Of a stretch of DNA of 40,000 bases, positions 1 through 18,332 are shown piece after piece (the stretch's first letter is position 1; every line of letters begins with the position of its first letter). Both the position numbers and the translations under genes were made by a program. The DNA comes from Halococcus salifodinae (lineage in GTDB: Archaea; Halobacteriota; Halobacteria; Halobacteriales; Halococcaceae), in assembly GCF_052043865.1 (NCBI RefSeq), contig NZ_JBQEMN010000005.1; one strand, written 5' to 3'. Below the pieces are notes generated by a model. That model did no database searches. It had not been told where the DNA came from and saw only the letters and a program-made list of their open reading frames with translations.

Positions 1-2299
1 TCCGTGGGTAGACGTCCGGATCATCGCACTCGCACCCTTCGTCGCCGATGAACGCAGTCTCACATGACCGACAGTGCTGATCGTGATGGATTTCAAAGAG
101 CCCACGCTTCACGAACGTGGACGATCCACAGTCGCATCGATTGGGGCTTTCCTCGAAGTGAATCCGACTACAGTCGCTGTTGTCACAGACCCACGGGAGG
201 AATCTCGTCAAACTGAGCGAGGAACCACAGTCGACACACTGGTCAGGGGCCTGTTTGGGGTGTTCGTAGGTCTCACCACAGTCCGGGCAATCGAATCGTC
301 CATCGATGGTGGCGAGGGCGAAGTCGGTCCCGTCACAGTTCTCACAGACACGTTCGGCCTCTTGGGTCGCCTCACACTGCGGATTAACGCAGGTGAACGA
401 TTCTTCTTCAGTCCTGACGGTCTTGGAGTCGCACTCGGGACAGTCCCGGATCGTCGTTCGCTCGGTTCGGTGCCTGCAGTTGCGGCACTCGAGGAATGGC
501 TGGAACGTCGCACGTACCATCTGAACGATGTCGTCGCGCACGTCCTCACATCGGCGGCAGACGTGTTCCTCGTCTTGGTCGATCGTTCCGTGCTCAGTCG
601 GCGTGTACGGTTCTAATTGATCACAACTCGGGCAGTACCACGCGACGAGATGCTCATCACTACAGTGCCGACAGTAGGTGGAGCGCGTGACGAAATCGAA
701 CCCACACTCACGGCAGTCGTCCTGTGGCGAACGGTACGTCGCATCGCACAACGGGCACGTGTAAAAGCCATCAATCGGCCAAGAGAACACATGACTCCGG
801 TTCTCCAGCATGCCGGAGAGCTCACCAAGGGTCCGGACGTTCGACACCAGTGTCGATGCTTCCTCAGCGTCAAGGTCCAGGACCGTCGCCAACTCGTCGT
901 GCAGTTGTGACTGCGTGAGTGGTTCGTCGTACAGCAACTGATGGACGTAGCGAACGACCTGTGCGCCAGGGTCGTTCTCGACTTCGGTGAGGTGGTCAAA
1001 GAGTGCGTCGCTCACCAGAGTCTCCCTGCGGGTACGATCGTACCTCGACGCGTCCTCCAGCGTGTAGTCGAACGCGTCGAGACCGGGGACCACGTCGTCC
1101 GGCGCGGTCATCGCACGCAGAATTCTGTCGACCGACAGACTGTACGACGTCAGCGCTTCTGGCACCTTCTCTGGAACGTTACCATCGAGGCCGCGAGGAG
1201 ATTCGCTCACTTGATTGACGTCGACGGCACCGCTGACCTTCTGGAACAGTTCGAGGTCGTTCTCGACAGTCGCACTGCTCGCGATGAGTTGCAGGTCGTC
1301 GACGCCACGTTCTTCCCGAAGAGACCGAACCCGCTTCATTAGCATCGACGTGTAACTCCCGAACAACCCATCGTAGGTATGCACCTCGTCGAAGACGAGA
1401 AATTCGGGCTCGTAGATGAATCGTTCGTGTTCGTCCTCGGCGTTGGTGTTGATGAGACGGTAATTTATCGTGTCTGGGTTGGTGAGCAGGATATCGACAC
1501 CGTCCTCAAGGATGTCGTTTTTAGTCAGGCGCAGGAAATCGAGCGGAACATCATTCGGATCGTCGTCCTCGCAGTGCGCTTTTTCGGGAATGAGTTTGAA
1601 CCGAGCACCAGTGTTCCGGATACGGACGCCGCCACCACAGTCTTGACACTTGGCAAGTTCGTCATTGTACCCCGGACACTCGAAGTGTCGGAACGTCGCG
1701 TTGAGGTATCCCTCAGCCCCCGACTCGCCGACATTTCGTGGGGTATCGCCGTCGTAGATGCCGACCGTGATCTGCTGTTCGGACGTTAGCTGCTTGTTGA
1801 TGAGGTATAGGTACTGAAGGAGACGCTTCAGTTGGTCCTGTGCGAGCGCCTTCGTCGGATAAATGAGAGTGGCCTTGACGCTCGTGTCGTCGTCACTTTG
1901 TCCGTAGCGCTTGTTCTTGAGAATGCGGTTGAGGATCGGAATGAGCCACGCTTCGGTCTTCCCGCGTCCCGTTGCGGCCGTAATGACGGTGTCGTCACCA
2001 TCGAGAATGGCTTCGATACTACGCTCTTGGAAGTCGTAGAGACGCTCGAAGCCGATCTTTGTGAACGCACGGCGGATATGCGGTTCGAGGTATTCCGAGC
2101 GAGCGAAGGCGTCCCACGAGCGACCACTCCAGTTCGGGATATCGAGTGCCTGGAGGTACGGACCGCGCATTCCAGTGAGAGCGTCTTCACCTTCGACAAG
2201 CCGGTTGGCGACAGTGCGCGCTGCTCGTCCACCACGACCAACGAAGTAGTCGTGGTAGGCTTCCTGCATCTGTTCCGCGCGGGCGGCAGGGTCTTTCAT
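1..2299 (-). CDS. SF2 DEAD/DEAH-box helicase (COG1205 / Lhr-YprA-like) with a tandem zinc-ribbon array; 3' end lies beyond the window edge
   Basis: Absent from the ORF track because this minus frame stays open from ATG 2299 down to position 1. Hand translation: MKDPAARAEQMQEAYHDYF... Motifs: I ITAATGRGKTEAW, Ia IYPTKALAQDQ, II LVFDEVHTYDG, III SSATVEN. These are followed by at least 7 CxxC...CxxC ribbons (CPLC/CREC, CRHC/CPSC, CRNC/CPEC, CENC, CPDC/CVDC, CRSC...). The ATG lies 2 nt after the upstream stop (2302-2304). Confidence 0.8.
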   Translation of the reverse strand, partial: MKDPAARAEQMQEAYHDYFVGRGGRAARTVANRLVEGEDALTGMRGPYLQALDIPNWSGRSWDAFARSEYLEPHIRRAFTKIGFERLYDFQERSIEAILDGDDTVITAATGRGKTEAWLIPILNRILKNKRYGQSDDDTSVKATLIYPTKALAQDQLKRLLQYLYLINKQLTSEQQITVGIYDGDTPRNVGESGAEGYLNATFRHFECPGYNDELAKCQDCGGGVRIRNTGARFKLIPEKAHCEDDDPNDVPLDFLRLTKNDILEDGVDILLTNPDTINYRLINTNAEDEHERFIYEPEFLVFDEVHTYDGLFGSYTSMLMKRVRSLREERGVDDLQLIASSATVENDLELFQKVSGAVDVNQVSESPRGLDGNVPEKVPEALTSYSLSVDRILRAMTAPDDVVPGLDAFDYTLEDASRYDRTRRETLVSDALFDHLTEVENDPGAQVVRYVHQLLYDEPLTQSQLHDELATVLDLDAEEASTLVSNVRTLGELSGMLENRSHVFSWPIDGFYTCPLCDATYRSPQDDCRECGFDFVTRSTYCRHCSDEHLVAWYCPSCDQLEPYTPTEHGTIDQDEEHVCRRCEDVRDDIVQMVRATFQPFLECRNCRHRTERTTIRDCPECDSKTVRTEEESFTCVNPQCEATQEAERVCENCDGTDFALATIDGRFDCPDCGETYEHPKQAPDQCVDCGSSLSLTRFLPWVCDNSDCSRIHFEESPNRCDCGSSTFVKRGLFEIHHDQHCRSCETAFIGDEGCECDDPDVYPR

Positions 2300-2301
2300 C
2301 G

Positions 2302-3132
2302 TTAGAGATTCAGTTCGACTGCCGACTCGAGTTCGTCGACGCGCTTCATCTCCTCGACGCTATCGAGTGAGACGTCTGCCAACGTGAGTTTCCGAGACTG
2401 GCTGAGTGTCTTAACGTCCTCAACGGTCGAGTCGGAGAGATCGTGCTTCTTTTGGAAGTCATCGAAACTCTGAAGCGACTGATGCTTCTCCCAGCTTTTC
2501 ACTGCGTTCTTCCACTGGGAGACGAAGTTCGATGCCGACCCGCTCGAGTCCATCAACTCCTCATTCAGGAGATTGTGCATATGGTTGAGTGTACGCGAGA
2601 AGTCCCTGTTCTGTCCTCCGAGAATCTTCTGGAGTTCCTCGGCGGCATTGACCTTCGTATTCCATTTCTCTTGCTTGGACTCGATCTGACGCCCAGTTTG
2701 CTCAATTACGTTATCGGCCTGACGCTTCGCTGACTGAATCTGCTCGATCTGCTTCTCTATCTCCGGAGTCAACTCAACTTTCGGGTTGCCCCTATCGTCG
2801 TCGGAGCCGAGTTCACCCTCGTCATCGGTGATTTCACCACTCTGGGCGTTCTCCAGCAGTTCCCCCTGTGTCGCCTCGGCCGCCTTCTTGGCGGTCTGTC
2901 CAGCACTATTAGTCATTGTCGGCGCTGAACCGTCGAGTGCCTCTTCGAAAACCGTCTTGTAGTATCGAAGATCTTCGAGACTTTCGATGAGATCGTCGAG
3001 TTCGCTGTTGACCTCGTTGATGTTGTGCTTCGCGACTGAGACGTGGAACTGGGTGTTTTCTGCTTGCTTGTGCGTCTTGACCTTGTCTTCGAGAGCCTCC
3101 ACGACTGTGGGTAGCGATTGGGTACTGGACAT
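2302..3132 (-). CDS. Hypothetical coiled-coil protein (276 aa)
   Basis: Part of track ORF 2302..3393. I trimmed it to ATG 3132 (MSSTQSLPTVVEALEDK...), which lies 1 nt after the stop of the upstream gene (3134-3136). The sequence is heptad-like and rich in K, E and Q. It sits in an operon. Confidence 0.7.
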   Translation of the reverse strand: MSSTQSLPTVVEALEDKVKTHKQAENTQFHVSVAKHNINEVNSELDDLIESLEDLRYYKTVFEEALDGSAPTMTNSAGQTAKKAAEATQGELLENAQSGEITDDEGELGSDDDRGNPKVELTPEIEKQIEQIQSAKRQADNVIEQTGRQIESKQEKWNTKVNAAEELQKILGGQNRDFSRTLNHMHNLLNEELMDSSGSASNFVSQWKNAVKSWEKHQSLQSFDDFQKKHDLSDSTVEDVKTLSQSRKLTLADVSLDSVEEMKRVDELESAVELNL

Positions 3133-3133
3133 T

Positions 3134-6100
3134 TCACAAATCCTCCGTGACTCCGATGACATCCTGCCGCTTCCGTTCGTACTCGGTGTACTCGTTGAGT
3201 TGCTGGATTCGGTGTTCGAGGTCGATCCCAGTCGAATGCTCTTGATCCTGAAGTTCGTCGATGAGCGAGTCGAGTGCTTCGTATATGTCCCAGGCCCCCT
3301 GCTCGTGGCTGCTGCGAGCGAAGTCGTGCAGGCGTGCGACGAGCGTCGTTCCAGTCGCGTCGTCCATGCTCTGGAACTTCTCCACGTCCTCACCGAAGGA
3401 TGTGAGTTTTACTTCGCCAGGCGATTCGGTAAGCGTCTCGTGGGCGTCTTCGTAGCTCGACTTGATGGTGACGTCCATCGTGCCAGCGCAGGTGTAAAGC
3501 GTCTCGAACCACTCGACGAGGTCGTCGACCGTGTGACTACTGTCGTGCCACCGCTCGACCGGCTCTAAAGCCTCCCGGATATGGGATGCGTCTTGCTCGG
3601 CTGTGAGACGCTGTATTTCAGTCGCGTAGTCCGAGATGCGGCTGAATAGTGTCGATACATTGGTGTTGGCCTGATTGCGAGTCGAGCCGATCTTGTATGC
3701 GTCGGGCAGATCACCTGTATCGATCATCATCGCGTCGTCGACGTGGGCTTCGAAGTTGCCCGCGACCTCACGTCGTGCTTCTGCTAAGCGCTCGTAGTCG
3801 ACGACATTCGACTTGAGCAGGAAGAACCCTTCAATGAGATCGCTGATATCGCTCGAAGACGCGCCCAGGTTCGTGAACGCTTCCCCGAACGCGCTGTCGC
3901 GCTCGAACTCATCGACGATCGGCTTCCCGTACGATTGGTCGTGTTCGTAGTCCTCGAAAACGAGCTGTGTCGATAGGCTGTCCTTTTCGATCTCCGTCCC
4001 CCTCGCGGCGTTGATGAGAAAGATCTGCCCCAGAACTAGCGTCTTCTCGATGGTGAGTCCCTCGGGGAGGCAGTCTTCGACCTCCTCGCGCATATCTTGC
4101 TTGAACTGCGCAACATTGGTGTCTGCCCACGCGCGTAACTGGTCGAAGTTCGTGTCGGTGGTATCGAACGTCTCGAAGAGACCGTATTCGAGCATCGGAG
4201 TGTAGAGGTCTGCGTGTTCTGCCCCCCACTCAAGTTCGATGTCGATGTTCGCCTGACGCTGCTGGTCTCCCTGGATGGACACCGGGATGCTGTCGCCGCG
4301 AGCGTAGTAGATCGCGCTCGCAGAGCGCGTCGACGCGTTCGGATTCCCGAGACGGCTCGGGTCATGACCGCGTTCGAGCGTCTCTATGGCCCCGTCGTGT
4401 AGCGTGTCCGAACTCGGATATTCTTCGCCGCTGATCACCCAGTCTTGGAACTCTTGGAACTTGTGCTGGCGCTCACGCTCCTCTTCCGATAGTTCGGACT
4501 CGTCGGTGACATCGACCTCGTCGTCCTCTTCGTCCCCGCCTTCGTCGTCTTCGGGGCCATTGTCCTCGCCCTCTTGCTCGTCACCGTCGTCTTCCTCGTC
4601 GATCTCGTGTTCGGGCGCGGGCGGGTTCTTGATCTTGTCGAGAACGGCACTTCCTTTTCCCTTATCGAAGACAACGTAGTCATCTTTCGCGGGCGCTTCT
4701 CCACTGTTGGGGAGTTCGATACCGAAGGCATCGAAGACATCGGTCTTGACACCGATGCCGCCCTCGACGGGAACACCGTACCAGCGACTGACGTCTTGGT
4801 ATATCTGGTCGTACTTCATGTCGACCTCGAACGTGGGCGTGTCCACGAACGAGTTCGACTTCATCGCCTTGTAGGGTGGCCAGGTCGACTTCAGGCAGTG
4901 TTTCACGACCCGCAGCAAAAGCAGGCGGGGCGTCTTTCGGTTACTACCTTCGTCGTTTAGCTGGCGGTAGGCGATGTTGACGAACCGTTCGTTGAACGGA
5001 TACAGTCCGTCGAAGGACTCTTCGACGCCATCCGGAGTGCTTTGGCTTCCAGAGTGACGTTTGATAGCGTTGAGGTATGACCGCGTGAGTTCGACAGAGG
5101 CGTCGTCGTCGAGGAAGTAAGCCTCGCCGTTCTCGTTGGTCATCGTTAGATATCCCTTGGAACGGCCTTTCATGTACGTAGCCGCGTCCGAGCGAGTCAT
5201 CGCGTCGTCGATGTTGTCCTGTTCCCAACCGATCGTCCACCCGAGGACGATGTCGTAGTGGCTGCTGCTGAGGTCGAAGATGTGGTCGAGGAGTTGTTCT
5301 TTTAGGACACTGAACGTCGTGAGGTCCTCACAGATGAGCACCGGCCGAATGTCCTGCTCTTGGTACAACTGAGAGTATTCTTGGAGTTGTTCCTTGAAGT
5401 CTCCAACCAGGTTTCGAGAGAGGTACTCGTGGGCCTCGTTCTTGAGTACCGTATAGAGCAGATCTTTGTTCTCGGTGAGTTTGTCGCTGAAGCTCATCTG
5501 GAGCCGAAGGTCCCGGAAGTCGGAGCGAGTGAGGAGGTTGAAGTCAGGGTTCTCGTCACGAGACTCAAGAGCGTCCTGGTACTTCTGAATGTTCTTCGCG
5601 AAGATTTCACGAAGGTCGCTCTTGTTGTCTCGTTTGTTAGTGAGTTCTTGAACGTCTTGGTCTGTGAGGTGATTAGTTGACCAGATACCGCGCATATACT
5701 CGACGATGGCACTCGCAGCGTCGTTCGGGTCGAGATCGTCGATGTTCTGCACGTCGGGATCGACGTCTAGGGGTTCGGTGAGAACATCGATGATCTGGTC
5801 CATCCGAGTCTGGCTTCGAGACACGTGAAGTGCCACGTAGTCCTCGACACCGTTGTCGTCCTCTCCGTAGCCGTTGATCTGGTACTTCGTCCACTCACAG
5901 AGTTGGCTCTTTCCAGAACCGGGTTCCCCACGGACGATGAAGATTCGGTTTGGATCCTCAAGATTCGACGCCGTGATGGATTCAAGGATGTCGTTTTGCG
6001 TGACGAAGTCCCCTGAGACGCCCACTGGAGTGAGCGTATCGGCGTAGATCCGGTCGATGTCGACGTGAGTTTCCTTGAACTGCTCGGGGGTCTTCTTGGC

Positions 6101-6199
6101 TGTGTGGGCTTCCGAGGTGATGAAATGGTCGATCTCGTCGTCATCCCAGTAGCGGTCCATCTCGCCGGCGGTCGAGGGTTGTTGAACGCTGTTGTTCAT
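3134..6199 (-). CDS. Large P-loop NTPase (1021 aa), family unassigned
   Basis: Track ORF. ATG 6199 overlaps the upstream stop (ATGA). Walker A is IVRGEPGSGKSQLCEW and a Walker-B-like motif is RPVLICEDLT. There is a central D/E-rich linker. I recognise no other domain. Confidence 0.8.
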   Translation of the reverse strand: MNNSVQQPSTAGEMDRYWDDDEIDHFITSEAHTAKKTPEQFKETHVDIDRIYADTLTPVGVSGDFVTQNDILESITASNLEDPNRIFIVRGEPGSGKSQLCEWTKYQINGYGEDDNGVEDYVALHVSRSQTRMDQIIDVLTEPLDVDPDVQNIDDLDPNDAASAIVEYMRGIWSTNHLTDQDVQELTNKRDNKSDLREIFAKNIQKYQDALESRDENPDFNLLTRSDFRDLRLQMSFSDKLTENKDLLYTVLKNEAHEYLSRNLVGDFKEQLQEYSQLYQEQDIRPVLICEDLTTFSVLKEQLLDHIFDLSSSHYDIVLGWTIGWEQDNIDDAMTRSDAATYMKGRSKGYLTMTNENGEAYFLDDDASVELTRSYLNAIKRHSGSQSTPDGVEESFDGLYPFNERFVNIAYRQLNDEGSNRKTPRLLLLRVVKHCLKSTWPPYKAMKSNSFVDTPTFEVDMKYDQIYQDVSRWYGVPVEGGIGVKTDVFDAFGIELPNSGEAPAKDDYVVFDKGKGSAVLDKIKNPPAPEHEIDEEDDGDEQEGEDNGPEDDEGGDEEDDEVDVTDESELSEEERERQHKFQEFQDWVISGEEYPSSDTLHDGAIETLERGHDPSRLGNPNASTRSASAIYYARGDSIPVSIQGDQQRQANIDIELEWGAEHADLYTPMLEYGLFETFDTTDTNFDQLRAWADTNVAQFKQDMREEVEDCLPEGLTIEKTLVLGQIFLINAARGTEIEKDSLSTQLVFEDYEHDQSYGKPIVDEFERDSAFGEAFTNLGASSSDISDLIEGFFLLKSNVVDYERLAEARREVAGNFEAHVDDAMMIDTGDLPDAYKIGSTRNQANTNVSTLFSRISDYATEIQRLTAEQDASHIREALEPVERWHDSSHTVDDLVEWFETLYTCAGTMDVTIKSSYEDAHETLTESPGEVKLTSFGEDVEKFQSMDDATGTTLVARLHDFARSSHEQGAWDIYEALDSLIDELQDQEHSTGIDLEHRIQQLNEYTEYERKRQDVIGVTEDL

Positions 6200-7122
6200 T
6201 GTCGGGTCAGGAACTGGGTGAGGGGGTACTGATAGGCCGTTTCGTCCGGGCGCGAGTGGATCGAAACGCGCGTCGCGTCACGCCGGTTTCCGCGAACGTC
6301 GTCGTCGAGGTCCTCCGGTGGAATCTCGACCGCGTTCTGCGAGTCACCGGGATTCGACAGAGAAATTACACCGTCATCCTCCATATTCCGCAGCACGTCG
6401 GCGATCGTGGGGTGGACACGCGGAGTGCCTGCCCGCTCTTCATACACCGCGAAGAGGTTGTCGTTTATCCAATCGAGTGCTCGCCGGAACTCTCCATCCG
6501 TTACTTCCACGTCGTCGTAACTGGGTTCCTCGCTGGAGGTCGTCGGAGCGAGTACGAGAGCGTCGTATGCCAAAGCACGACAGGGGCTGAGGACGAGTTC
6601 GTCTTCCGTCTCAGTTAACAGCCCCAGTTGCTCACACAGCGTCACCCACATATCGATCTTCTCGTCGGTCCAACTGAAGGTGTAGTCTGTCTCGCGCTTC
6701 AGGATGGTACGCAAGTCATCTTGACTGCCACTCACAATCCTGTTTTCCTCAGTCAGCAGCGCACGGTAGACATCAGCGAAGTGCGTCTGTCGCCCCTCCT
6801 GTTGGTTGCAGTGATACAACAATCGCGCTTCGAACTGGAGTCCACCGAACTGAGACTCGTTGATGCGTTCGACCGTGCTCCTGATGTCCCCTGAGGGACT
6901 CTCAACGAGATCGACCGCGTTCAGGAACCGCACTGTATCCTCGACGTGATCGGATTCGATCCCGTTGTCAGTTGGACGCCCAAACTTACTCGCCAGTTCG
7001 TTGACGCTGGTTGCGCTCTGAATGGCGTTGTGGATATGCTTTAATTCCGGTGCTCGCACCGAGATGAACCCGGTGAGTAACTTGTCTGGTTTCGTCTTAG
7101 CCGATGTGTACGTTGTGCTCAT
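6196..7122 (-). CDS. Hypothetical protein (308 aa)
   Basis: Track ORF 6196..7239 trimmed to ATG 7122 (MSTTYTSAKTKPDKLL...). This start overlaps the stop of the upstream gene as ATGA (7119-7122). The composition is acidic. Confidence 0.7.
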   Translation of the reverse strand: MSTTYTSAKTKPDKLLTGFISVRAPELKHIHNAIQSATSVNELASKFGRPTDNGIESDHVEDTVRFLNAVDLVESPSGDIRSTVERINESQFGGLQFEARLLYHCNQQEGRQTHFADVYRALLTEENRIVSGSQDDLRTILKRETDYTFSWTDEKIDMWVTLCEQLGLLTETEDELVLSPCRALAYDALVLAPTTSSEEPSYDDVEVTDGEFRRALDWINDNLFAVYEERAGTPRVHPTIADVLRNMEDDGVISLSNPGDSQNAVEIPPEDLDDDVRGNRRDATRVSIHSRPDETAYQYPLTQFLTRQ

Positions 7123-7985: not shown

Positions 7986-8182
7986 CGTCTGGTGTGCTTG
8001 GGTTCGGCGTCGATGTGGGATGGACGCCGACTGCACGCATCCATTAGTCGTAGCCGTGGCTACGGAACGATACAGCCGTTTTAGGCCGCGTCGAACGGGA
8101 TGCGATCACATATCCTTCAGGGGCAGTTGGTTTGAACCTGTCGGAATTTTTTATTTTATGTTCGCACAGATGGCTCTCCTCG

Positions 8183-8208
8183 TTCCAGGAAGCGACATCA
8201 TCCTGGAA
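8183..8208. promoter_or_regulatory. Perfect 8-bp inverted repeat TTCCAGGA-N10-TCCTGGAA in a divergent intergenic region
   Basis: Read directly from the sequence. It lies in the roughly 390-bp AT-richer spacer between the effector operon and the Csa3-like gene. A second palindrome, CGTAGCC-GT-GGCTACG, is at 8049-8064. Confidence 0.3.
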
Positions 8209-8424
8209 TAGCGTGCGAACTCTTGGCAGTACCATGAGAACAATCAAATAGTTGCCGACGGTGCAACAAACACGGGACAGTTGCGGTGATCTGGAACGAC
8301 AAAGCAGTATATCTGGGCTAATTGATCCATTTGCCACCAATCCGAATCTGATTCTATACAGATTTCACTCCCACTGTTGCGTTGAAGCGGAACAGTAACG
8401 ACCATCCGAAGGAGTAGCAAAAAC

Positions 8425-9078: not shown

Positions 9079-9147
9079 CGGTGGGATTTTCGCTGGGGTT
9101 AGAAATGGATTATGGCAGTCTTCATCACCTTCGCCGTTTAGCGCACA

Positions 9148-11201: not shown

Positions 11202-11203
11202 TA

Positions 11204-12238
11204 TCACGTGAGTCTCCTGACCTGCTGTTTCGCCTGTCGGTACGCCCGTTTGGTGACCTCGTTACCCTGAAACCGTAGGTCGAGGTACGCCTCCACGTCC
11301 TCGTTGGCAGCAACCATGTAGCGGAAGCGTCGGAGTTCCATCGTGAGCGCCCAGAGATTGTGCTTCGTCAGGGCATTACGATCCTCACGCAACTCCGTAA
11401 ACGGCGTGTCACGACAGACTGGGCACGAACACGGGAGGTACGAGAGTTCGGTGACGTGTTTGAGTTCCTGACCACCAAACCCTGGAACCAGATAATTCCG
11501 GTTTCCAGCGCTCCGGATAAATGCCGAGGAGTCGAAACTATCGACCCCCAGGTACAGCAGTAGGGGTTGGTATACTAACCCCCCCAATCCGTACACATGC
11601 AGGTGCTTGTCGGTCGCCCGTCTGGCCGCAAGTATTATACTTGTCACCTTTTTGTAATCTGTTCTGACCGGAACGAGACTCCCGAGCGCGTACCCGTCGA
11701 AATCGCCGTTACGCTCTAAGTACCGGACGTTGTTCTGTACCGTCTCCGGATCGAGACCATGGATACTGGCGAACAGTAATTCCTCACCGTCATGTTCGTC
11801 ACTCGCTTCAACGGCATACTCCGCACTATCGGAGATGCGCCGCTGGTTTTCCCTGTCTCGGTTCTCTCGGGAGATGGGCCGATCTACCGTCCCGAGGATG
11901 TCCGCGCCGATCTGACGCTGTGTTTCGAGCGTCCGTGCTGGGGTAGTGTCGACGTCTCCCGCTTGGAAGTCGAACCCCCCACTGTCGGCGAAGATGACGG
12001 TTTCCTCTGGGATGTCCATCTCTTCACGGAGAGTAGCCCCGTTGAGGAGGCGATTCCACTGTGGATCACGTTGTCTGATCGCTCGTGCATTCACCATCGC
12101 TGTCCGAAGGTCCGGAATCGCATCGGCGTACGCTGGCGTGTTGTCGGAGGATCGTTTGCCGATGTTCCGAACCGGGAACAGGACGGGCGTCTTAATGCAC
12201 CCGTGTGGCGTGTTGAGCGTTCGTTGTCTGTACAGCAT
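11204..12238 (-). CDS. Minimal TGT-family transglycosylase (ArcTGT-like catalytic core only, 344 aa)
   Basis: Track ORF 11204..12295 starts at a TTG, trimmed here to ATG 12238 (MLYRQRTLNTPHGCIKTPVLFPV). Motifs: FADSGGFD, HVYGLGG, LGVDSFDSSAF, and the zinc motif CSCPVCR...KHN. No C-terminal PUA, C1 or C2 region is present. Confidence 0.85.
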   Translation of the reverse strand: MLYRQRTLNTPHGCIKTPVLFPVRNIGKRSSDNTPAYADAIPDLRTAMVNARAIRQRDPQWNRLLNGATLREEMDIPEETVIFADSGGFDFQAGDVDTTPARTLETQRQIGADILGTVDRPISRENRDRENQRRISDSAEYAVEASDEHDGEELLFASIHGLDPETVQNNVRYLERNGDFDGYALGSLVPVRTDYKKVTSIILAARRATDKHLHVYGLGGLVYQPLLLYLGVDSFDSSAFIRSAGNRNYLVPGFGGQELKHVTELSYLPCSCPVCRDTPFTELREDRNALTKHNLWALTMELRRFRYMVAANEDVEAYLDLRFQGNEVTKRAYRQAKQQVRRLT

Positions 12239-12275
12239 GCGCGACGCGCTCGGGTAGCTCGGGTTCCGTGTTAAA

Positions 12276-12293
12276 GCTTTGTGTGGACAAAGC
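12276..12293. promoter_or_regulatory. Inverted repeat GCTTTGT-N4-ACAAAGC in the divergent TGT / wHTH promoter region
   Basis: Read directly from the sequence. It abuts a TTTAA element about 32 nt upstream of TGT ATG 12238. Confidence 0.3.
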
Positions 12294-12355
12294 AATCACG
12301 GCGAGGAGGTACTGAGGACGGAGGATGTATAGTGAGCGGGGGCAACGCCAAGAGT

Positions 12356-12640
12356 ATGCACTCCGCGGTCGACGAAGTAGTCTGTCCGAAGCGGTCGCTG
12401 GAGATCTTAGACTATCTCAGCGAACACGACGAATCGAACTTCAGTACGATTGAGGATGCTGTGCCGACATCGAGCGATGTAGTGACTGAGCGATTGGAAA
12501 CGCTCCAAGAGTACGGGTTAGTTGAGCGCGAAGAGCGGAGTTCACGCAACGTCCGGTATTCGCTCACTCAGGATGGGGAAACGTTTCTCACCCATCTCGA
12601 AGAAGTAGATGAGTTTCTCCAAAACTCCCGCGGCGACTAG
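12356..12640 (+). CDS. Small winged-HTH transcriptional regulator (94 aa)
   Basis: Track ORF 12281..12640 starts at a GTG, trimmed here to ATG 12356 (MHSAVDEVVCPKRSLEILDYLSEHDESNFSTIEDAV...VRYSLTQDGETFL). It is divergent from the TGT operon. Confidence 0.7.
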   Translation: MHSAVDEVVCPKRSLEILDYLSEHDESNFSTIEDAVPTSSDVVTERLETLQEYGLVEREERSSRNVRYSLTQDGETFLTHLEEVDEFLQNSRGD

Positions 12641-13344
12641 TCGTACGAACCGAGTCCGGACTGGCGTGTTGGTTCCGTCGTACAGTACTCGACGACTTCC
12701 GTGAAAGAATCGATCGTTGTACCCTCCGCCCTGTGTGCGGCAAATTGCTTTAGATACTGTCCTTTTAGTCCAATAACGGTACTTCCCTGTTCTTTCGCCT
12801 CGGCCGTTCGTGCGGGGATGGAAATGACATTTGGCCGTTGCTCGGCGTCGGCTTCACGATTGAACAGCACGACCATCGTCGAGTCGGAGAATGTATCAAG
12901 CAGTCGGGAGAGGTCGAGTGCCTCGTAGTAGTCACTCCCGAGTGCAAGGAAGACGAGATCGTAGGCGGGGTCGTCGTCTAGTCGATTGAGCAGGTCGCTC
13001 TGGATCTCTAGTTCCGAGGATCGCTCGTGGACGCTCTCAGTATCGTAGTCTTGGAACGTCACTTCGTAGGGCGGGAGTTCGGTCGCCTCACCAACGAAAC
13101 CGAATCCTGCACTGATATAATAGCGATCAACGGTGTCTCCGGACTCCCGAAGACGATCAACGGCTACGTCGATATACTGCTGTTGACGGCCAGTATAGAG
13201 GTCGTGAGCGGAATAGGTCGGCGTCCGTTCCCGCTCACGGAGTTCGGGGAGGGAGAAATCGTCGATGGTCTCGGCGTCAAACGAGTCGAACCATTCGGGC
13301 GATTGCTTCGATCCCGAACACTGGTCGACGACGAGTACACGCAT
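12637..13344 (-). CDS. Hypothetical protein (235 aa) coupled to the DpdA-like gene; N-terminal VLVVDQCSGSK motif
   Basis: Track ORF 12637..13350 starts at a TTG. ATG 13344 lies 2 nt after the upstream stop (13347-13349). I recognise no family with confidence. Confidence 0.7.
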   Translation of the reverse strand: MRVLVVDQCSGSKQSPEWFDSFDAETIDDFSLPELRERERTPTYSAHDLYTGRQQQYIDVAVDRLRESGDTVDRYYISAGFGFVGEATELPPYEVTFQDYDTESVHERSSELEIQSDLLNRLDDDPAYDLVFLALGSDYYEALDLSRLLDTFSDSTMVVLFNREADAEQRPNVISIPARTAEAKEQGSTVIGLKGQYLKQFAAHRAEGTTIDSFTEVVEYCTTEPTRQSGLGSYD

Positions 13345-13346
13345 CC

Positions 13347-15554
13347 TCAAAACTCAGTAAGACCCGACTGCTGAAGATGTTTCGGGAGGAACGATTCTTG
13401 GTAGCCCAGACGACTGAGCACGGCGCTGCGTAGTTCGCTAGGTTCCTCGTGGACGTGGACTGTGCAGTCTGTCTCTTCGAGGGCCGAGCGAACCTTCTCA
13501 GGAAGCGTCCAATCGCTTCCATCGACGTAGAGGTCCTGATACCGCTCACAGACGGTCGCAAGCTCGTCCGCCATCCAATCCATATCGAGTGAGATCGTCG
13601 TCGGTGGATCGTCCCACCACTCTTGGACCCCATCGGCGGTGGCGACGCCGATCTCTGCGACGGGCAGGTCATGAACGTGCGTCCAGAGCGTTTCGTGTTC
13701 ATCCCGGAGATATTCTTCGCCAGTATCGCTCCGTGAAAGCGCACTGCTCCCACGGGTGATGACCAGCACCTTCGGCAAGGCACGCTCGAACTGATCGTAG
13801 AAGCGTTGCGTGTTGTGGAACCCACGTCGGCGGTTGCGATTGTTCCCACGCCAGATGGCGACTTCAATGCCATGTTCACGACAAATAGTACAGTCACACT
13901 CCCTCCAGGGTTCGGCCCGGAGGACGCGCTCGTAGGAATCAAGATTGTTCCCGTCTCCGACGAACTCGGCATACGTTTCGAGGAGTACCCAGAGTTGGTC
14001 AAACGTTCCGACCGTCCCAGTGTTTGTCTCGCGGCGCTCGATAGTGTCGATCTTCGTCGGGGCGCGACCCTCGATTACCTCAGTGGCCGTCTTGATGAGA
14101 TTCTTGTACGCAGTGAACGAAAGGGGATTCTCGGAGCCGTCGTCGCGGAGGAGTTTGATGAGTCGAGTCCGGAAGTCATCACTGAAATTGGCTTTGAGTT
14201 CACGTCCGTATTCGTAGTGATCACGGAAGGAACTCGTGATAGGCCGAAGCGTCGTCTCGTCGAACTGGGCGTCGTGCCGGTGCTCACGGATATACATGGG
14301 GAGATTGGCAAGGGCTGTGAGCGCAGTATCCTGCCATGAACGGAGGGCGTCGACGATCGACTCGTCCTTATCGAACGCCCGGAGCGCAATAAGTAGTTCC
14401 TGAGCGCGAAGTGCCCACTCGATACTGGTTTCGAGGTCTGCACTGTACGGCGGGTATCGTACTCGAATCGCATCGAACCGTCGAGTGCTGTCGAGGTGAT
14501 AGTTATCGCCACCGGTCCACGCCGCACGGAGCATACTGGCGCTGTCGAAACTCGCCATGCCAGCACGGCCGATCGTATCGAACGCGCCGGTCTTGGCGAA
14601 CCCGAACACGTGGGTATCGATTCGCGTACGATACGTTCGCTCGTGATGTTTGACCGCGTTCCCGACCGCAGAGACTGTGCGTTTGACGGCATCTTCGCTG
14701 CTTCCGGCAACTCCACCGATACCGATGTACTGGTACCCCAAGTCAAGCACGTCCTCAACGGCTCTCTCGTAGGAGTCAGGGTCCCACCCTTGGATGGCGA
14801 CCATTAGTCGGAAGGAATAGTCACCATCTTGGTAAAAATCCTGCATCTCGGCGGCGTTGTCGAGAGTCAACTCGTACCGGAAGGCCATATCGTCATCTCG
14901 ATACACTGCCCGAGGATCATCTTTGAGTCGCGTGAGAACGTCTTGTTTCTCTCCCTCGAAATCAGCAGCGCGGAAGCTGTCGACTTCGCTATCAGCAGTA
15001 TCTCGGAGTGTAGAGTCGTACTCAGCAACGTAGTCTGGCCACTCGTCCGGCCAAGTGTCGGTCATCACGTCAGTATCACTCTCGGCCAACCATTCCGGGA
15101 GATCACTGGTGGTAAACTCGTCGCCGAGGGCACGATCATCAAGATAGAGTCGGCTGGTATGTCCGGAGCCTAGGACGAGATGATCAATTGTGACCCCGAC
15201 ATCAACCTCAAGCGTCTCGTAGAACTCCAGCATGTCCCAATTCCCGTACGGTGGAAAAGGGAGTTGCTTGTAACCCCATGCCCCACAGTCACTGATCGTG
15301 GGGAGCCACTCCGGGAGATCGAGGCGTGGATCATCGTAAACACCGTGTGAAGTGATACGGTCGAACTTTGTGGGCGAGTCCTCAACTTGTTCGCGAGAAA
15401 TGAGGACACCATCGATCGGTATCGACTCGCGATCGAAGACATCCCAGATGTATGCGAGGTCACGGTCTGCAGGAGAAAGGTCCGAGTGCTCATCATGGAC
15501 GAAATCGTACGCCGCGTCTACGTGGTCGTCCCACTCAGGGACATAGAAGCGCAC
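13347..15554 (-). CDS. DpdA-like TGT-superfamily transglycosylase, long form (735 aa)
   Basis: Track ORF. GTG is the only available start, because an in-frame stop lies at 15564-15566. The N-terminus is MRFYVPEWDDHVDAAYDF. Other motifs: ISDCGAWGY (Asp position equivalent to DSGGFQ), HVFGFAKTG...MASFDSASMLR, and the zinc motif CDCTICREHG...GFHN. There is an extra C-terminal region of about 130 aa. Confidence 0.75.
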   Translation of the reverse strand: MRFYVPEWDDHVDAAYDFVHDEHSDLSPADRDLAYIWDVFDRESIPIDGVLISREQVEDSPTKFDRITSHGVYDDPRLDLPEWLPTISDCGAWGYKQLPFPPYGNWDMLEFYETLEVDVGVTIDHLVLGSGHTSRLYLDDRALGDEFTTSDLPEWLAESDTDVMTDTWPDEWPDYVAEYDSTLRDTADSEVDSFRAADFEGEKQDVLTRLKDDPRAVYRDDDMAFRYELTLDNAAEMQDFYQDGDYSFRLMVAIQGWDPDSYERAVEDVLDLGYQYIGIGGVAGSSEDAVKRTVSAVGNAVKHHERTYRTRIDTHVFGFAKTGAFDTIGRAGMASFDSASMLRAAWTGGDNYHLDSTRRFDAIRVRYPPYSADLETSIEWALRAQELLIALRAFDKDESIVDALRSWQDTALTALANLPMYIREHRHDAQFDETTLRPITSSFRDHYEYGRELKANFSDDFRTRLIKLLRDDGSENPLSFTAYKNLIKTATEVIEGRAPTKIDTIERRETNTGTVGTFDQLWVLLETYAEFVGDGNNLDSYERVLRAEPWRECDCTICREHGIEVAIWRGNNRNRRRGFHNTQRFYDQFERALPKVLVITRGSSALSRSDTGEEYLRDEHETLWTHVHDLPVAEIGVATADGVQEWWDDPPTTISLDMDWMADELATVCERYQDLYVDGSDWTLPEKVRSALEETDCTVHVHEEPSELRSAVLSRLGYQESFLPKHLQQSGLTEF

Positions 15555-15685
15555 CGTTGTTAGTCACCGATAGCGGGTTGCCACGTCTGGTATATGAAGG
15601 TGCTCAATCTACAGCGGTGGTATTCGTTAGAGACAGATGGCGATGAGCAGCTACGCCTAAGTGTAGTGGCGTACAATCCGAGATC

Positions 15686-15985
15686 ATGCCCGTCATCACC
15701 TCCGATCGCGTCCTCGAAAACGTAGAGCACATCTTGTCAAGTGGATCTGGCGTGCTGGATTTTGCTGTGAGCGGCGAGGATGAGTACTATACATGGTGGG
15801 GAACAGAAAAATCGAACTGGGAAATCAGCGGTGTGGGCCACATCGAAAACGCTGAGGAAGACAGAATGGCCATCTATCCCATTGGAGATGCATTCTATTG
15901 CGAAATCTCAGCCGACGGGGAGGAGTTCAATACCGGTCCCGTGAAATGTGTATCAGAAGAATCGAAAGAGTCGGCATCTGTATAA
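15686..15985 (+). CDS. Small acidic hypothetical protein (99 aa)
   Basis: Track ORF with an ATG start. It fills the gap between the DpdA-like gene and queC on the opposite strand. The composition is acidic. There is no homology evidence. Confidence 0.45.
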   Translation: MPVITSDRVLENVEHILSSGSGVLDFAVSGEDEYYTWWGTEKSNWEISGVGHIENAEEDRMAIYPIGDAFYCEISADGEEFNTGPVKCVSEESKESASV

Positions 15986-15992
15986 TCGCTAT

Positions 15993-16703
15993 TTATGTGA
16001 GTGGATCGGAGATGCCAGCCTTTTCGAACGCTTCCTCCCGCTCGATACATGCAGGACATTCTCCACAGGGGTCTCCATTCTCGTCGTTGTAGCAACTGAA
16101 TGTGACTTTCCAGTCGACCTCCAAGCGCTCGCCAAGTTGCAGCACTTCCGGCTTCGAGTGGTTGATGATCGGTGTATTGATTCGAATCATGTGTTGGTCA
16201 GTCGACTTGTTGATCGCATTCTCAGCGACTTCAAGAAACGTTGGACGACAGTCCGGGTAGTCCTCTCCATCGTTTTGTTGGGCACCGTGATAAAGAACAA
16301 TATCTTCACCAGTCTCGGAATTGTGTTCGGCGATCGCAGCAGCAGTTGTGAGGAAATGGAGGTTTCGTTGTGGAACGTATCCGACGCTGTGGTCATCGTC
16401 GGTCGTGTGCTCGCGGTCGTACTCTTTGTCCTCGATTGTTCCTTCGGCGAATTCGCTGAATACAGCGCGATAATTGCAGGTGTAGAGAGGTATATCGAGA
16501 CCATCTGCCTGCTTCTCTGCGTTGGCACGTTCGATGTCTTCGGTTTGCTGGCCATAGTCGATATGGATAGCTGCGACGCTATCGTGCTCTTCAGACGCTT
16601 TCTTCAAACAAACGGCCGAGTCGATACCACCTGAGAGGAGAACGAATGCCTTCGATTCGCTGGAATTGTTGTCGTGCATTGTCGGAGTGTGTCTGTTATT
16701 CAT
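15993..16703 (-). CDS. queC: 7-cyano-7-deazaguanine (preQ0) synthase QueC
   Basis: Track ORF. The motif AFVLLSGGIDSAVC is a PP-loop, and there is a C-terminal Cys cluster FSCY...CGECPACIERE. At about 236 aa it has no fused amidotransferase domain. Confidence 0.9.
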   Translation of the reverse strand: MNNRHTPTMHDNNSSESKAFVLLSGGIDSAVCLKKASEEHDSVAAIHIDYGQQTEDIERANAEKQADGLDIPLYTCNYRAVFSEFAEGTIEDKEYDREHTTDDDHSVGYVPQRNLHFLTTAAAIAEHNSETGEDIVLYHGAQQNDGEDYPDCRPTFLEVAENAINKSTDQHMIRINTPIINHSKPEVLQLGERLEVDWKVTFSCYNDENGDPCGECPACIEREEAFEKAGISDPLT

Positions 16704-16773
16704 TCACCGTGCGCGAACTGGTCGAAATAGACGACCGGCATGCATTTTTCACCCGATTATTTACCATTCTGTC

Positions 16774-17553
16774 TCACCTTCCCGCTTCGTCGTTCCAGAG
16801 GTTCACGTGCAGGCGTGGAGTGTATCGATACCCATGTTCCATCGCGAGGTCGGCAACCTGTGCACGCTTCTGTGCGATTTCGGCCTCAGTCTGTCCTTCC
16901 GGCATGAGCAAAACGTCCTTGTTTCGCACGCGAGCACTTGTCTGCTGACGAATACGCTCGATAATGTCATTAAGCTCCTTAATGTCCGCTGAAGAGGTAA
17001 CAACGAACTTGAGTTGAAACGGGTAGTTCTCAACCAGGTGCATCAGCGCCGTCATATCGATCCGGCGCTCTTCGTGCTCTTCACTCCATTCGCCATCGCC
17101 TTTCGGATCTTTCGATGCTGTGGGTGTACTGCTAGAGAGTTTCGGGCTGATGCTTGCGAGATCAATTGCCGCATCTGGGCAGATTGTTCCGTTCGTTTCA
17201 ACTGTTATATGGTAACCCCTGCTGGCGAGGGTGTCGATGAGATTTGTCGTTTCGTCATGAATCAACGGTTCACCACCGGTGATAACGACGTGATCCGCTT
17301 TGGTGTGGGTAGAGACTTCTTCGATGATCTCTTCGGTGCTCATCCATGCGTGTGTGGGTTCCCAAGACGTATGATACGAATCGCAAAACCAACAGCGAAG
17401 ATTACAGCCACTTGTACGAACAAAAACTGACGGGATACCCGCGAGTTTACCCTCTCCTTGCATCGAATAAAAGAGTTCGTTGATTGGGAGACTCTCTGTT
17501 CCGGATCCATCCTGTGGTCTCTCGGTCGTATCGACTTCTGAACTGACCGGCAT
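16774..17553 (-). CDS. queE: 7-carboxy-7-deazaguanine synthase QueE (radical SAM)
   Basis: Track ORF 16774..17613 trimmed to ATG 17553, which lies 1 nt after the queD stop. Motifs: FYSMQGEG, and the radical-SAM cluster motif VFVRTSGCNLRCWFCDS. Confidence 0.9.
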   Translation of the reverse strand: MPVSSEVDTTERPQDGSGTESLPINELFYSMQGEGKLAGIPSVFVRTSGCNLRCWFCDSYHTSWEPTHAWMSTEEIIEEVSTHTKADHVVITGGEPLIHDETTNLIDTLASRGYHITVETNGTICPDAAIDLASISPKLSSSTPTASKDPKGDGEWSEEHEERRIDMTALMHLVENYPFQLKFVVTSSADIKELNDIIERIRQQTSARVRNKDVLLMPEGQTEAEIAQKRAQVADLAMEHGYRYTPRLHVNLWNDEAGR

Positions 17554-17554
17554 A

Positions 17555-18022
17555 CTATCGTGAGGGGTGCGTCCCCAGTTCGCTTGTCTCACGCACCTCA
17601 ACATCCACTTCATTAACCGATGCAGGTAATCGGTCTCGTAACCTGTTTTCGAGAATAATACCCATCACCTCAGCCGTGGGTGGATGGTCGAGAACGACAG
17701 TGGCATCGCTATCGCCGCTTTGTTCGAACGCGTCGATGAGTGGGTCACCACGTTCGAGCAGAAATCGGTGATCCCACTCCTCAACGATATCGGTCACAGT
17801 ACCTTTGTCGACGACCCACCCCTCTTCTCGGAGTGTTCCAGTAACCGTGACAGCAATTTTGTAGTTGTGTCCATGAGGGCGGCTACACTTTCCCTCGTGA
17901 TGGAGAATCCGATGTCCAGTGCTAATACGGATCGGACGGTCTCGTCCAATCGAAAGCACCCGTGATTCATCTGAGAGTGTTACGTCACGTAGTCCATCTT
18001 CCTTGGCTACACTCTGGGGCAT
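17555..18022 (-). CDS. queD: 6-carboxy-5,6,7,8-tetrahydropterin synthase QueD
   Basis: Track ORF with ATG 18022. Contains the CSRPHGHNY motif (CxxxHGH). Confidence 0.9.
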   Translation of the reverse strand: MPQSVAKEDGLRDVTLSDESRVLSIGRDRPIRISTGHRILHHEGKCSRPHGHNYKIAVTVTGTLREEGWVVDKGTVTDIVEEWDHRFLLERGDPLIDAFEQSGDSDATVVLDHPPTAEVMGIILENRLRDRLPASVNEVDVEVRETSELGTHPSR

Positions 18023-18044
18023 ACTGGGGTATGACTGGGAGAGG

Positions 18045-18052
18045 ATTTAAAA
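18045..18052 (-). promoter_or_regulatory. TATA-like box (TTTTAAAT on the minus strand) 23 nt upstream of the queD ATG
   Basis: Read directly from the sequence. The spacing fits an archaeal promoter producing a leaderless transcript. Confidence 0.3.
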
Positions 18053-18123
18053 CTAATCTTCAGGCTGGAAGTGCTACAGAGATAATTGATCACGCATTCT
18101 GTTGGCGGATGGAAAACATAAAC

Positions 18124-18300
18124 CTATTCTTCATTTTCGAGGCGACCATGTCGTTCGTCGATCTCATCCAGTATATCGAGAGTTTTTCGCATCGAGGCGC
18201 GGATTGCGTCGCTACGATTCACAAATTTACCATCGTCACCGATGTGTTCGTCAATATCGTTCATCAACTCCTCAGGGACCTCGACGCTGATTTTGGGCAT
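18124..18300 (-). CDS. Ribbon-helix-helix (CopG-like) protein, 58 aa
   Basis: Too short for the ORF track, so I translated it by hand: MPKISVEVPEELMNDIDEHIGDDGKFVNRSDAIRASMRKTLDILDEIDERHGRLENEE*. It follows the typical RHH pattern: a beta-strand, then two helices with SRSE/AIR-type residues. Confidence 0.7.
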   Translation of the reverse strand: MPKISVEVPEELMNDIDEHIGDDGKFVNRSDAIRASMRKTLDILDEIDERHGRLENEE

Positions 18301-18332
18301 ATTACAGTATTATCTCTCACCAACTTAGTTCC

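Follow-up and report, generated by a model that had tools for sequence, protein, structure and literature searches.

The 40,000-nucleotide (nt) window of Halococcus salifodinae contig NZ_JBQEMN010000005.1 carries an island at positions 1-18022 that is most likely a variant of the Dpd DNA modification system. The variant is common to many archaea and previously undescribed as a system, and its function is predicted from sequence and gene context. Bacteria, phages, and archaeal viruses are known to modify DNA with 7-deazaguanines. That the island encodes such a modification system is highly probable. It is only slightly less so that the whole serves as a Dpd-type modification-restriction system in which 7-deazaguanine would mark self DNA, with a parts list unlike that of bacterial dpdA-K, and the adjoining restriction module is rather more likely than otherwise to belong to it. 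All genes listed in the original prediction are present, the main genes lying on the minus strand throughout. Its proposal of a Dpd-like 7-deazaguanine DNA system rather than a tRNA archaeosine locus is well supported by an equivalog-level DpdA match and by the residues of that protein.

DpdA, the central protein of the island, is 735 amino acids (aa) long (13347-15554, minus strand) and is predicted to be a DpdA-type DNA-guanine transglycosylase. It scores 262.9 bits against the NCBIfam DpdA equivalog NF041059 (cut-off 200) and matches the PADLOC DpdA model at 1e-70; the Pfam TGT model does not detect it, and the TgtA model (TIGR00432) gives no match. It aligns in three blocks to Salmonella Montevideo DpdA (PDB 7UI4, E = 1e-39) and shares the catalytic Asp residues and CxCx2C...H zinc site of the bacterial enzyme. 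By the residue roles described for Salmonella DpdA (PMC10164549), D89 corresponds to the general acid Asp95, D124 to active-site Asp130, D337 to the nucleophile Asp256, W346 to the wedge residue Phe265, and C553/C555/C558/H580 to the zinc site Cys368/370/373/His395 (CxCx2Cx22H). All of these residues are invariant across 17 homologues.

The motifs that the original prediction had chosen by eye as DpdA-like comprise the N-terminus MRFYVPEWDDHVD, SDCGAWG (D89), FDSAS (D337), and CDCTIC...H (C553/C555/C558/H580). They align residue by residue with the active and zinc sites of 7UI4, and this structural match, together with their invariance among the homologues, indicates that the right motifs were chosen. 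The DpdA identity therefore draws on a passed equivalog model and on residues that match a solved structure, with the features of Dpd membership, Asp95, Asp256, and the zinc site, all present. The NCBI pipeline would already label the protein DpdA. Compared to bacterial DpdA, it contains two large insertions (~130-238 and ~416-540) and a C-terminal extension of ~140 residues (593-735). A search of the IMG/VR viral contigs turned up no relative of it.

The DUF6884 protein is a 237-aa protein (235 aa as called; 12637-13350, minus strand) encoded between DpdA and TGT2, the second TGT-family enzyme of the island. It was absent from the original prediction, whose statement that there is no recognisable DpdC probably does not hold. 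YaaA/DUF328 is the family of DpdC, which in bacteria converts 2'-deoxy-preQ0 (dPreQ0) to dADG, the 2'-deoxynucleoside of 7-amido-7-deazaguanine. The 237-aa protein gives PADLOC DpdC matches down to 4.9e-8 and a Pfam DUF6884 match of 1.7e-4, short of the cut-off, and its motifs CxxxK (C11...K15) and SAGFG (the SAxxG of DUF6884) are invariant. The AlphaFold 2 (AF2) model has a predicted local distance difference test (pLDDT) value of 83.9, and its one PDB match with E<1e-3 is Escherichia coli YaaA (5CAJ, E = 4e-5). DUF6884 is distantly related to YaaA/DUF328 according to the Pfam curators (PMC11701544).

In most haloarchaeal homologues, DpdA and DUF6884 form a single polypeptide of ~965 aa with DUF6884 at the C-terminus. 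The fusion in Bathyarchaeia is 567 aa long and also carries DUF6884 at the C-terminus, and the order is reversed in cyanobacteria, where DUF6884 is N-terminal to DpdA. This recurrent fusion is strong evidence that DpdA and DUF6884 would work successively on one substrate. The DUF6884 protein is thus predicted to adopt a YaaA/DUF328-like fold and to be the DpdC-like counterpart of DpdA. A YaaA-superfamily partner adjoins DpdA in the bacterial Dpd island as well; the difference is that the role of DpdC would fall in archaea to DUF6884 instead of DUF328, usually as a fusion to DpdA.

The precursor genes queD, queE, and queC lie upstream of the DpdA gene on the minus strand, as the original prediction had it, and inside the island, as in bacterial Dpd. 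QueD (17555-18022; Pfam PTPS 1.2e-20) is 6-carboxytetrahydropterin synthase, the first dedicated step toward preQ0. QueE (16774-17613) matches Radical_SAM at 8e-18 along with Fer4_12, and QueC (15993-16703; Pfam QueC 1e-51) is 7-cyano-7-deazaguanine synthase, whose product is preQ0. QueD orthologues that are 62-75% identical adjoin DpdA in ~30 of the 50 related loci surveyed, and QueE orthologues in these loci share 60-66% identity. QueC is merely 31-36% identical to the QueC of L001-L049 (locus numbers carry the prefix L), compared to 60-75% for QueD and QueE, and would therefore belong to a separate QueC lineage. FolE, which most loci have between QueE and QueC, is absent from this island. 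The divergent QueC and the missing FolE point to partial replacement of the preQ0 cassette.

Across the survey, QueD, QueE, and QueC stand beside the core in ~30 of 50 loci, usually with FolE (Pfam 3e-51), and the Bathyarchaeia loci carry GCHY-1, QueD, QueC, and QueE. Loci L005-L007, without QueD, QueE, and QueC, instead encode a Vut_1/YhhQ-type queuosine-precursor transporter (8e-39). The company of either preQ0 synthesis genes or a YhhQ-type transporter is taken as a sign that the core depends on 7-deazaguanine.

TGT2 is a stand-alone, bare catalytic domain of 344 aa (11204-12238 as called, within an open reading frame (ORF) at 11204-12295; minus strand) that matches Pfam TGT at 6e-29. Its hit to ArcTGT (TgtA, PDB 1IQ8) reaches 2e-21, and its hit to NCBIfam DpdA reaches 2.5e-7. 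Like ArcTGT, it has an alignable catalytic domain with Asp95, Asp130, Asp249, and the zinc site, so that its own D104, D138, and D255 with C289/C291/C294/H312 make up the full catalytic and zinc-site set. The island thus encodes two TGTs, as originally stated, DpdA and a catalytically intact TGT2. Unlike ArcTGT, TGT2 has none of the tRNA-binding domains (C1, C2, and PUA), and His replaces Gln169. This His is present in most short TGTs and is the same residue as His181 of bacterial DpdA. TGT2 falls outside ArcTGT/TgtA as defined by a barrel with C1, C2, and PUA domains and by the TIGR00432 cut-off, scoring 147.2 bits against a cut-off of 350 over model positions 11-348 of 441.

An exhaustive HMMER search with TGT2 retrieves a small family of ~345-aa TGTs at 33-39% identity, followed by the long, PUA-type ArcTGTs. 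In a rough neighbour-joining tree, TGT2 sits within a clade of 26-40 short TGTs that is separate from the 88 long ones; this comparison, part of a check that the original prediction had proposed, places it outside the long ArcTGT group. The inspected members of the TGT2 clade adjoin DpdA-DUF6884, or the gene at that position is cut off.

p302 is a ~300-aa tandem winged-helix protein (10299-11207, minus strand) with no family match in Pfam, PADLOC, or NCBIfam. Its AF2 model (pLDDT 78.8) contains three to four tandem winged-helix domains, and the best PDB matches, RPC62 and SelB WH1-4, have E = 1e-4 and a low template modelling (TM) score. A Bathyarchaeia homologue that adjoins TGT2 is 31% identical (2e-44). 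Within the TGT2 module, p302 is probably the subunit that binds nucleic acid.

The third member of this trio is a 384-aa P-loop ATPase of the BrxC/BrxD family (9148-10302, minus strand), with matches to Pfam BrxC_BrxD (5.7e-17) and AAA_22, to PADLOC BrxD (8.5e-14), and to NCBIfam BrxD (49.8 bits, cut-off 350). Walker A (GNGKSHT) and Walker B (VFVFVDEFE) are readable in its sequence. Orthologues that are 71-83% identical occur in nearly all related haloarchaeal loci, with a minimum of 56%, and the protein is a candidate ATP-dependent partner of the transglycosylases. The TGT2, ~300-aa, and ATPase genes are tightly spaced on the minus strand, so the coupled operon headed by a second, minimal TGT that the original prediction described is indeed there.

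Bacterial DpdB is a ParB-like DGQHR-domain ATPase that is required for preQ0 insertion, and its role is still unclear. DpdB and ParB models from Pfam, PADLOC, and NCBIfam find nothing among 14 island proteins, in agreement with the original report of no ParB-like DpdB, and the BrxD-like ATPase is found there instead. Where the bacterial island has DpdB, the archaeal island has TGT2 with its winged-helix partner p302 and the BrxD-like ATPase, a hint that the trio stands in for DpdB. It is conceivable, at rather less than even chances, that the trio is a new ATP-driven machine for DNA base exchange, serving either as a DpdB-like loader or targeting device for DpdA or as the writer of a second 7-deazaguanine mark that would differ in chemistry or in sequence.

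Two cyanobacterial plasmids offer a comparison. In Nostoc sp. NIES-3756 pNOS3756_2 (L058, 9933-18450), a 714-aa DUF6884-DpdA occurs with a 315-aa second TGT that is translationally coupled between two DEAD/DEAH helicases, and there is no DpdB. Scytonema NIES-4073 plasmid1 (L059, 11116-15243) encodes a 714-aa DUF6884-DpdA fusion and a DGQHR (DpdB) gene but no second TGT. Both share with the archaeal loci the fusion, a DpdA core with 35-37% identity, and a zinc motif with 60%, and the short Nostoc TGT is 28% identical to TGT2 and likewise coupled to ATP-dependent partners. The fusion order differs, as do the TGT2 partners in Nostoc, two ~790-aa helicases rather than a BrxD-like ATPase and a winged-helix protein. 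These two cases, anecdotal as they are, hint that the job of DpdB may alternatively fall to TGT2 together with an ATP-driven partner. The cyanobacterial loci are annotated, and no description of them was found in the literature. The original prediction of an archaeal counterpart is borne out insofar as the system occurs in archaea; the design is not purely archaeal, given the fusion and second TGT of the Nostoc plasmid.

BREX-related capture (BRC) systems that bear TGT and GNAT modules combine a TGT with BREX-family ATPases and lack DpdB and DpdC; the 2026 paper on them (PMC12839542) proposes that DpdB may be replaced there by an NTPase. The island resembles them in pairing a TGT-family enzyme with a BREX-family ATPase. 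It differs in having the DpdA-DUF6884 pair and a DpdH-like protein, counterparts of which BRC systems lack, and the genes that define BRC (HerA/FtsK translocase, PglZ, the BrxC-like DUF6079, STAND NTPase, and DUF4007; PMC12839542) are undetected among the island proteins scanned. BREX is defined by PglZ and BrxC with a methyltransferase, and in BRC a HerA/FtsK translocase takes the place of the methyltransferase. Membership in BREX or BRC was rejected: only the 384-aa ATPase resembles BrxD, and PglZ, PglX, BrxA, BrxB, BrxL, and HerA are undetected among the proteins scanned.

The Csa3-like regulator (8425-9078, plus strand) contains a CARF-type Rossmann domain and a winged helix-turn-helix, and its matches to Csa3_N (8.7e-13) and several helix-turn-helix families bear out its earlier naming. 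It is divergent from an operon of minus-strand genes that begins with p305 (= p288; 288 aa as called, 7119-7985, in an ORF at 7119-8036), a protein with no family match in Pfam, PADLOC, or NCBIfam. p347 (= p308; 308 aa as called, 6196-7122, in an ORF at 6196-7239) follows in a DpdG-like position and size, and then a DpdH-like P-loop protein of 1021 aa (3134-6199) and p276 (also p278; 2302-3132 in the gene calls of L051), DpdI-like in position and size. The window starts within a DpdJ-like DEAD/DEAH helicase with zinc-ribbon inserts, whose N-terminal 766 aa are encoded at 1-2299 (Pfam DEAD 1e-23). Gene calls and the sequence beyond the window start were taken from the identical public contig L051, in which the helicase is 1842 aa long and a second one, of 1816 aa, comes after it. 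The five-gene operon of the original prediction thus stands as to its coupled genes, 1021-aa P-loop protein, and helicase, and it extends past the window start, where the second helicase follows. Genes inside each block of the island overlap by 4 bp or are spaced by 1-2 nt (L051 gene calls).

The 1021-aa protein is, on the evidence of hidden Markov model (HMM) matches, a putative remote homologue of DpdH and not an equivalog. It matches NCBIfam DpdH NF041065 at 6.2e-12 over residues 398-885 (44.8 bits, below the cut-off of 450) and PADLOC DpdH at 2e-5. All four full-length members of its family match the DpdH model (6e-12 to 3.2e-17), and pairwise BLAST with Enterobacter DpdH aligns the Walker region alone (Walker B). 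The best PADLOC match of the helicase is DpdJ (1.5e-30); in NCBIfam it reaches 6.6e-27 for DpdJ (93.6 bits, cut-off 800) and 1.1e-27 for DECH_helic, both far below cut-off. NCBIfam scans of 31 members of the operon families gave DpdH matches, weak DrmC matches, and nothing else, and DpdD, DpdE, DpdF, DpdG, and DpdI have no NCBIfam or PADLOC match among the island proteins. A phospholipase D-like (PLD) nuclease of 659 aa (PLDc_2 1.6e-8, the Pfam family of DpdK) comes after the helicases in 13 loci of Halobacteria, and likewise in Bathyarchaeia L052 and L055.

On an Enterobacter plasmid, the reference order is dpdE, F, G (291 aa), H (1068), I (282), J (1478), K (176, PLD), and D, and dpdA and dpdB are found beside these genes. 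The archaeal genes run p308, DpdH-like (1021), p276, helicase (1842), second helicase, and, in relatives, PLD nuclease (659), a series that by its order and predicted sizes parallels bacterial dpdG-H-I-J-K. The putative DpdH homologue, DpdJ-like helicase, and DpdK-like nuclease of relatives are likenesses to bacterial Dpd (dpdA-K of Salmonella enterica serovar Montevideo; Thiaville 2016, Yuan 2018, Gedara 2023); the lack of DpdD, DpdE, and DpdF, the two paralogous ~1800-aa helicases, the Csa3-type regulator, and the archaeal hosts are differences. The effector genes, called unrelated in the original prediction, are better described as probable distant relatives, with DpdH matches in four of four family members, a PADLOC DpdJ match for the helicase, and the PLD nuclease in related loci.

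One genome per species was surveyed, giving 50 loci: 49 in Halobacteria of more than 25 genera and one in a metagenome-assembled genome (MAG) of Hadarchaeota. Neighbourhoods comprised 10-kb flanks, onto which the window proteins were mapped and in which all ORFs were clustered. Of the 50 loci, 42 contain the whole core, made up of DpdA, DUF6884 (fused to DpdA or separate), TGT2, p302, and the ATPase, nearly always in the same order, which answers the earlier question of conservation in other Halobacteria. Three of the eight loci without the full core are ended by contig ends, and 42 of the 47 informative loci have the trio no more than 10 kb from DpdA. The Csa3/p305/p347/DpdH-like/p278/helicase module, or its distal helicase-helicase-PLD part, flanks the core in ~22 of 50 loci, a minimum because 10-kb flanks truncate a ~20-kb module. 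Orthologues of p305 occur in nine loci, each with the DpdH-like gene set, and the Csa3-like gene accompanies the p305 operon in L001, L020, L022, L033, L034, and L035.

Four distant TGT2 contexts (L052-L055) were inspected, with the trio in four, the DpdA-DUF6884 fusion in three, and the gene order permuted. Bathyarchaeia L052 and L055 encode the ATPase, TGT2, p302 homologue, and fusion together with GCHY-1, QueD, QueC, QueE, an 1843-aa DEAD/MZB helicase, and a PLD nuclease. Metagenome contig L053 encodes the trio and the fusion, and metagenome contig L054 encodes the trio, the gene at the fusion position being ended by the contig end and never searched. In the Hadarchaeota MAG (L050, CAYNPN010000018.1, 5007-11758) three TGT-family genes lie together, encoding a 392-aa TGT, a 585-aa DpdA-DUF6884 fusion, and a 345-aa TGT2 with a helicase fragment before it; their vicinity includes a YhhQ-like transporter and a 1481-aa Dna2/NAM7-like helicase. 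With its core in Halobacteria, Bathyarchaeia, and in part Hadarchaeota, the system appears to be an old, mobile archaeal unit that spans several phyla. The loci L028, L029, L034, and L043 are plasmid-borne.

Other genes adjoin the core in particular groups of loci. Upstream of the Que genes in L010, L018, L027, L037, and L048 are a 1136-aa BrxC-like ATPase and proteins of 255 aa, 388 aa (HNH-associated repeat), and 208 aa, and this set may represent alternative effectors for the same modification core. Another group (L023, L025, L038, L041, L044, and L045) encodes a 1054-aa UvrD-like helicase with an apparent C-terminal PD-(D/E)XK-like domain, a 320-aa TFIIB-like zinc-ribbon protein, and a 770-aa HATPase-like protein, labels that were read from the sequence by eye with no family search.

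Every step of the proposed mechanism draws on homology and gene context. QueD, QueE, and QueC would convert dihydroneopterin triphosphate (H2NTP) to preQ0, and because the island is without the FolE carried by most relatives, a host GTP cyclohydrolase would supply the H2NTP. DpdA would exchange guanine in double-stranded DNA for preQ0 by the TGT double-displacement mechanism, as its equivalog-level match and intact active site suggest. The DUF6884 protein would then act on the inserted base, most likely by hydrating its nitrile to give the amide (dADG), which is what DpdC does, a step suggested by the fusion to DpdA and the YaaA/DUF328-like fold. TGT2, the winged-helix protein, and the BrxD-like ATPase, which constantly co-occur, would form one module for ATP-dependent DNA targeting in DpdB's stead, and this step is the least certain. 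TGT2 would probably exchange bases too, since its full active site is kept, perhaps at a second sequence context. Finally, the Csa3-like regulator would control p288, p308, the DpdH-like NTPase, p276, and the two giant helicases (with the PLD nuclease in relatives), and this operon would recognise and degrade DNA without the mark, as homology to Dpd restriction genes and linkage across phyla suggest.

Several observations weigh against a Dpd-type modification-restriction system. DpdB is missing, as are DpdD, DpdE, and DpdF. The DpdH and DpdJ matches fall far below the curated cut-offs, and the generic DECH-helicase model equals DpdJ. The candidates p308 as DpdG (hhalign against Enterobacter DpdG, E = 0.048, probability 1%) and p276 as DpdI (hhalign against the 282-aa Enterobacter protein that occupies the place of DpdI, E = 0.39) were rejected as non-significant. 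The window stops short of the PLD position, so that a PLD nuclease here is predicted from relatives. The DpdC counterpart belongs to DUF6884 and not DUF328, and the match of its model to YaaA 5CAJ has a TM-score of merely 0.40. In five loci (L017, L019, L026, L039, and L040) DpdA-DUF6884 occurs without an intact TGT2 trio, and DpdA is perhaps not strictly dependent on it. The helicase/DpdH module lies within 10 kb of DpdA in just ~22 of 50 loci and the neighbours vary, so the link between modification and effectors may in part be a defence-island coincidence. The literature searched yielded no measurement of either dPreQ0 or dADG for the cellular DNA of an archaeon.

Of the rival explanations, all of them unlikely, modification only is the least so. 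The core and preQ0 genes would then mark DNA with a 7-deazaguanine to protect a plasmid, the island, or the host from other restriction systems, or to serve an epigenetic function, and in the Csa3/DpdH-like/helicase operon a separate defence system would simply adjoin them. The varying effector neighbours fit this, with more than half of the loci lacking DpdH or helicase genes within 10 kb, as do the four plasmid-borne loci, the ParA and serine recombinase genes of the window, and the purely anti-restriction action of phage DpdA systems (PMC6884629). It fits poorly with a giant helicase and PLD nuclease beside the modification genes in both Halobacteria (at least 13 loci) and Bathyarchaeia L052 and L055, where in L055 both share the orientation of the rest. 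A putative homologue of DpdH, the sole detectable family specific to bacterial Dpd restriction, is moreover present, and the 10-kb flanks underestimate co-occurrence with a ~20-kb module.

The trio could also be an independent system beside a minimal DpdA-DpdC pair, either a BREX-related or other ATPase defence or a tRNA/RNA modifier whose binding subunit can be detached. By sequence, TGT2 comes nearest to the catalytic domain of ArcTGT, TGT genes are known from BREX-related BRC systems (PMC12839542), and DpdA-DUF6884 does occur without the trio in the five loci named above. This explanation is nevertheless very unlikely: the trio keeps within 10 kb of DpdA in nearly all informative loci and is present, with permuted gene order, in all four distant contexts inspected, three of which also have DpdA-DUF6884, the fourth being cut at that position by a contig end. 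TGT2 also lacks the tRNA-binding domains and lies outside the long ArcTGTs, and the BREX proteins PglZ, PglX, BrxA, BrxB, BrxL, and HerA are undetected in the scans. Least probable is that unrelated genes happen to adjoin an ordinary locus for tRNA archaeosine or a cluster for 7-deazapurine secondary metabolites. QueC, QueD, and QueE do serve tRNA archaeosine synthesis too, and both TGTs bear the database name "tRNA-guanine transglycosylase". The archaeosine locus was rejected all the same, since the 735-aa protein scores above the cut-off of the DpdA equivalog and matches the structure in its key residues, neither TGT has a PUA domain, and TGT2 scores 147 bits against a TgtA cut-off of 350. 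The low G+C, patchy distribution, and plasmid location in several species also argue against it, and ArcS, QueF-L, and biosynthetic tailoring genes are undetected in Pfam scans of the island proteins. A provirus or virus-borne anti-restriction cassette was likewise rejected: IMG/VR yielded no relatives, and the window has neither capsid nor terminase genes.

The base composition of the window changes at the end of the island. G+C is 0.52-0.58 over 1-18000, 0.46 over 18001-19000, and 0.60-0.64 over 19001-24000, and this step between island and flank fits a horizontally acquired island. The stretch at 18001-19000, between QueD and the flank, contains a sole ORF of 134 aa with no family matches and is probably the island boundary. 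Inside the island, a 99-aa ORF between QueC and DpdA (15686-15985, plus strand; L051 gene call) has no recorded Pfam match. A small winged-helix protein of 94 aa (12356-12640, plus strand), HxlR-like by weak HxlR/HTH_34 matches in L051, is possibly a local regulator. Just beyond the island is a serine recombinase (21495-22394, minus strand; Resolvase 2e-26), and further away is a ParA/MinD-type ATPase (36466-37338, minus strand); the window may originate from a plasmid or other mobile region. A Bax1-type DUF790 protein (1.5e-129) beside an XPB/Rad25 helicase (ResIII, ERCC3_RAD25_C, XPB_DRD) at 28329-31278 (minus strand) is an archaeal XPB-Bax1 repair pair that has no relation to the island.

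Halovirus HVTV-1 infects Haloarcula vallismortis and has 30% of its G replaced by preQ1. This laboratory host bears the full system (L049; strain ATCC 29715, NZ_AOLQ01000002.1), with helicase, PLD, QueC, FolE, QueE, DpdA-DUF6884, TGT2, p302, and ATPase, and the viral 7-deazaguanine mark may be a counter-measure to the host system. The known DpdA classes are bDpdA and DpdA1-4, of which DpdA4 comes from archaeal viruses (PMC10516641). The viral DpdA1-DpdA4 systems (phage 9g, CAjan, and HVTV-1; PMC6884629, PMC10516641) resemble the island in having preQ0 genes and a post-replicative DNA transglycosylase. They differ in being anti-restriction only, in using other DpdA subfamilies (DpdA4 = DUF6610), and in lacking the ATPase trio, DUF6884 fusion, helicase, and PLD genes. 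Hutinet et al. (2019; PMC6884629) mention a bacterial-type DpdA homologue of Haloarcula vallismortis on contig AOLQ01000002, which is L049, in a passing remark that leaves the neighbourhood undescribed. The original claim of novelty thus stands for the system and not for this homologue: no description of a cellular archaeal Dpd system, or of DUF6884 in such a role, was found in the literature covered, which did not include the founding 2016 Dpd paper, and no report of 7-deazaguanine in archaeal chromosomal DNA was found.

The island predicts 7-deazaguanine DNA in Halobacteria (more than 25 genera) and Bathyarchaeia. It would present a natural experiment in the rebuilding of Dpd, with DUF6884 for DUF328 and a second transglycosylase with an AAA+ ATPase for ParB-like DpdB, and it could explain the preQ1 substitution of HVTV-1, whose host Haloarcula vallismortis carries it. 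If the trio writes a second mark, these archaea and some cyanobacteria would use a two-transglycosylase, two-mark code for self and non-self, and archaeal chromosomes would then be the first in their domain shown to bear 7-deazaguanine. Haloarchaea are genetically tractable, which makes the mark, its motif, its dependence on each TGT, and restriction directly testable.

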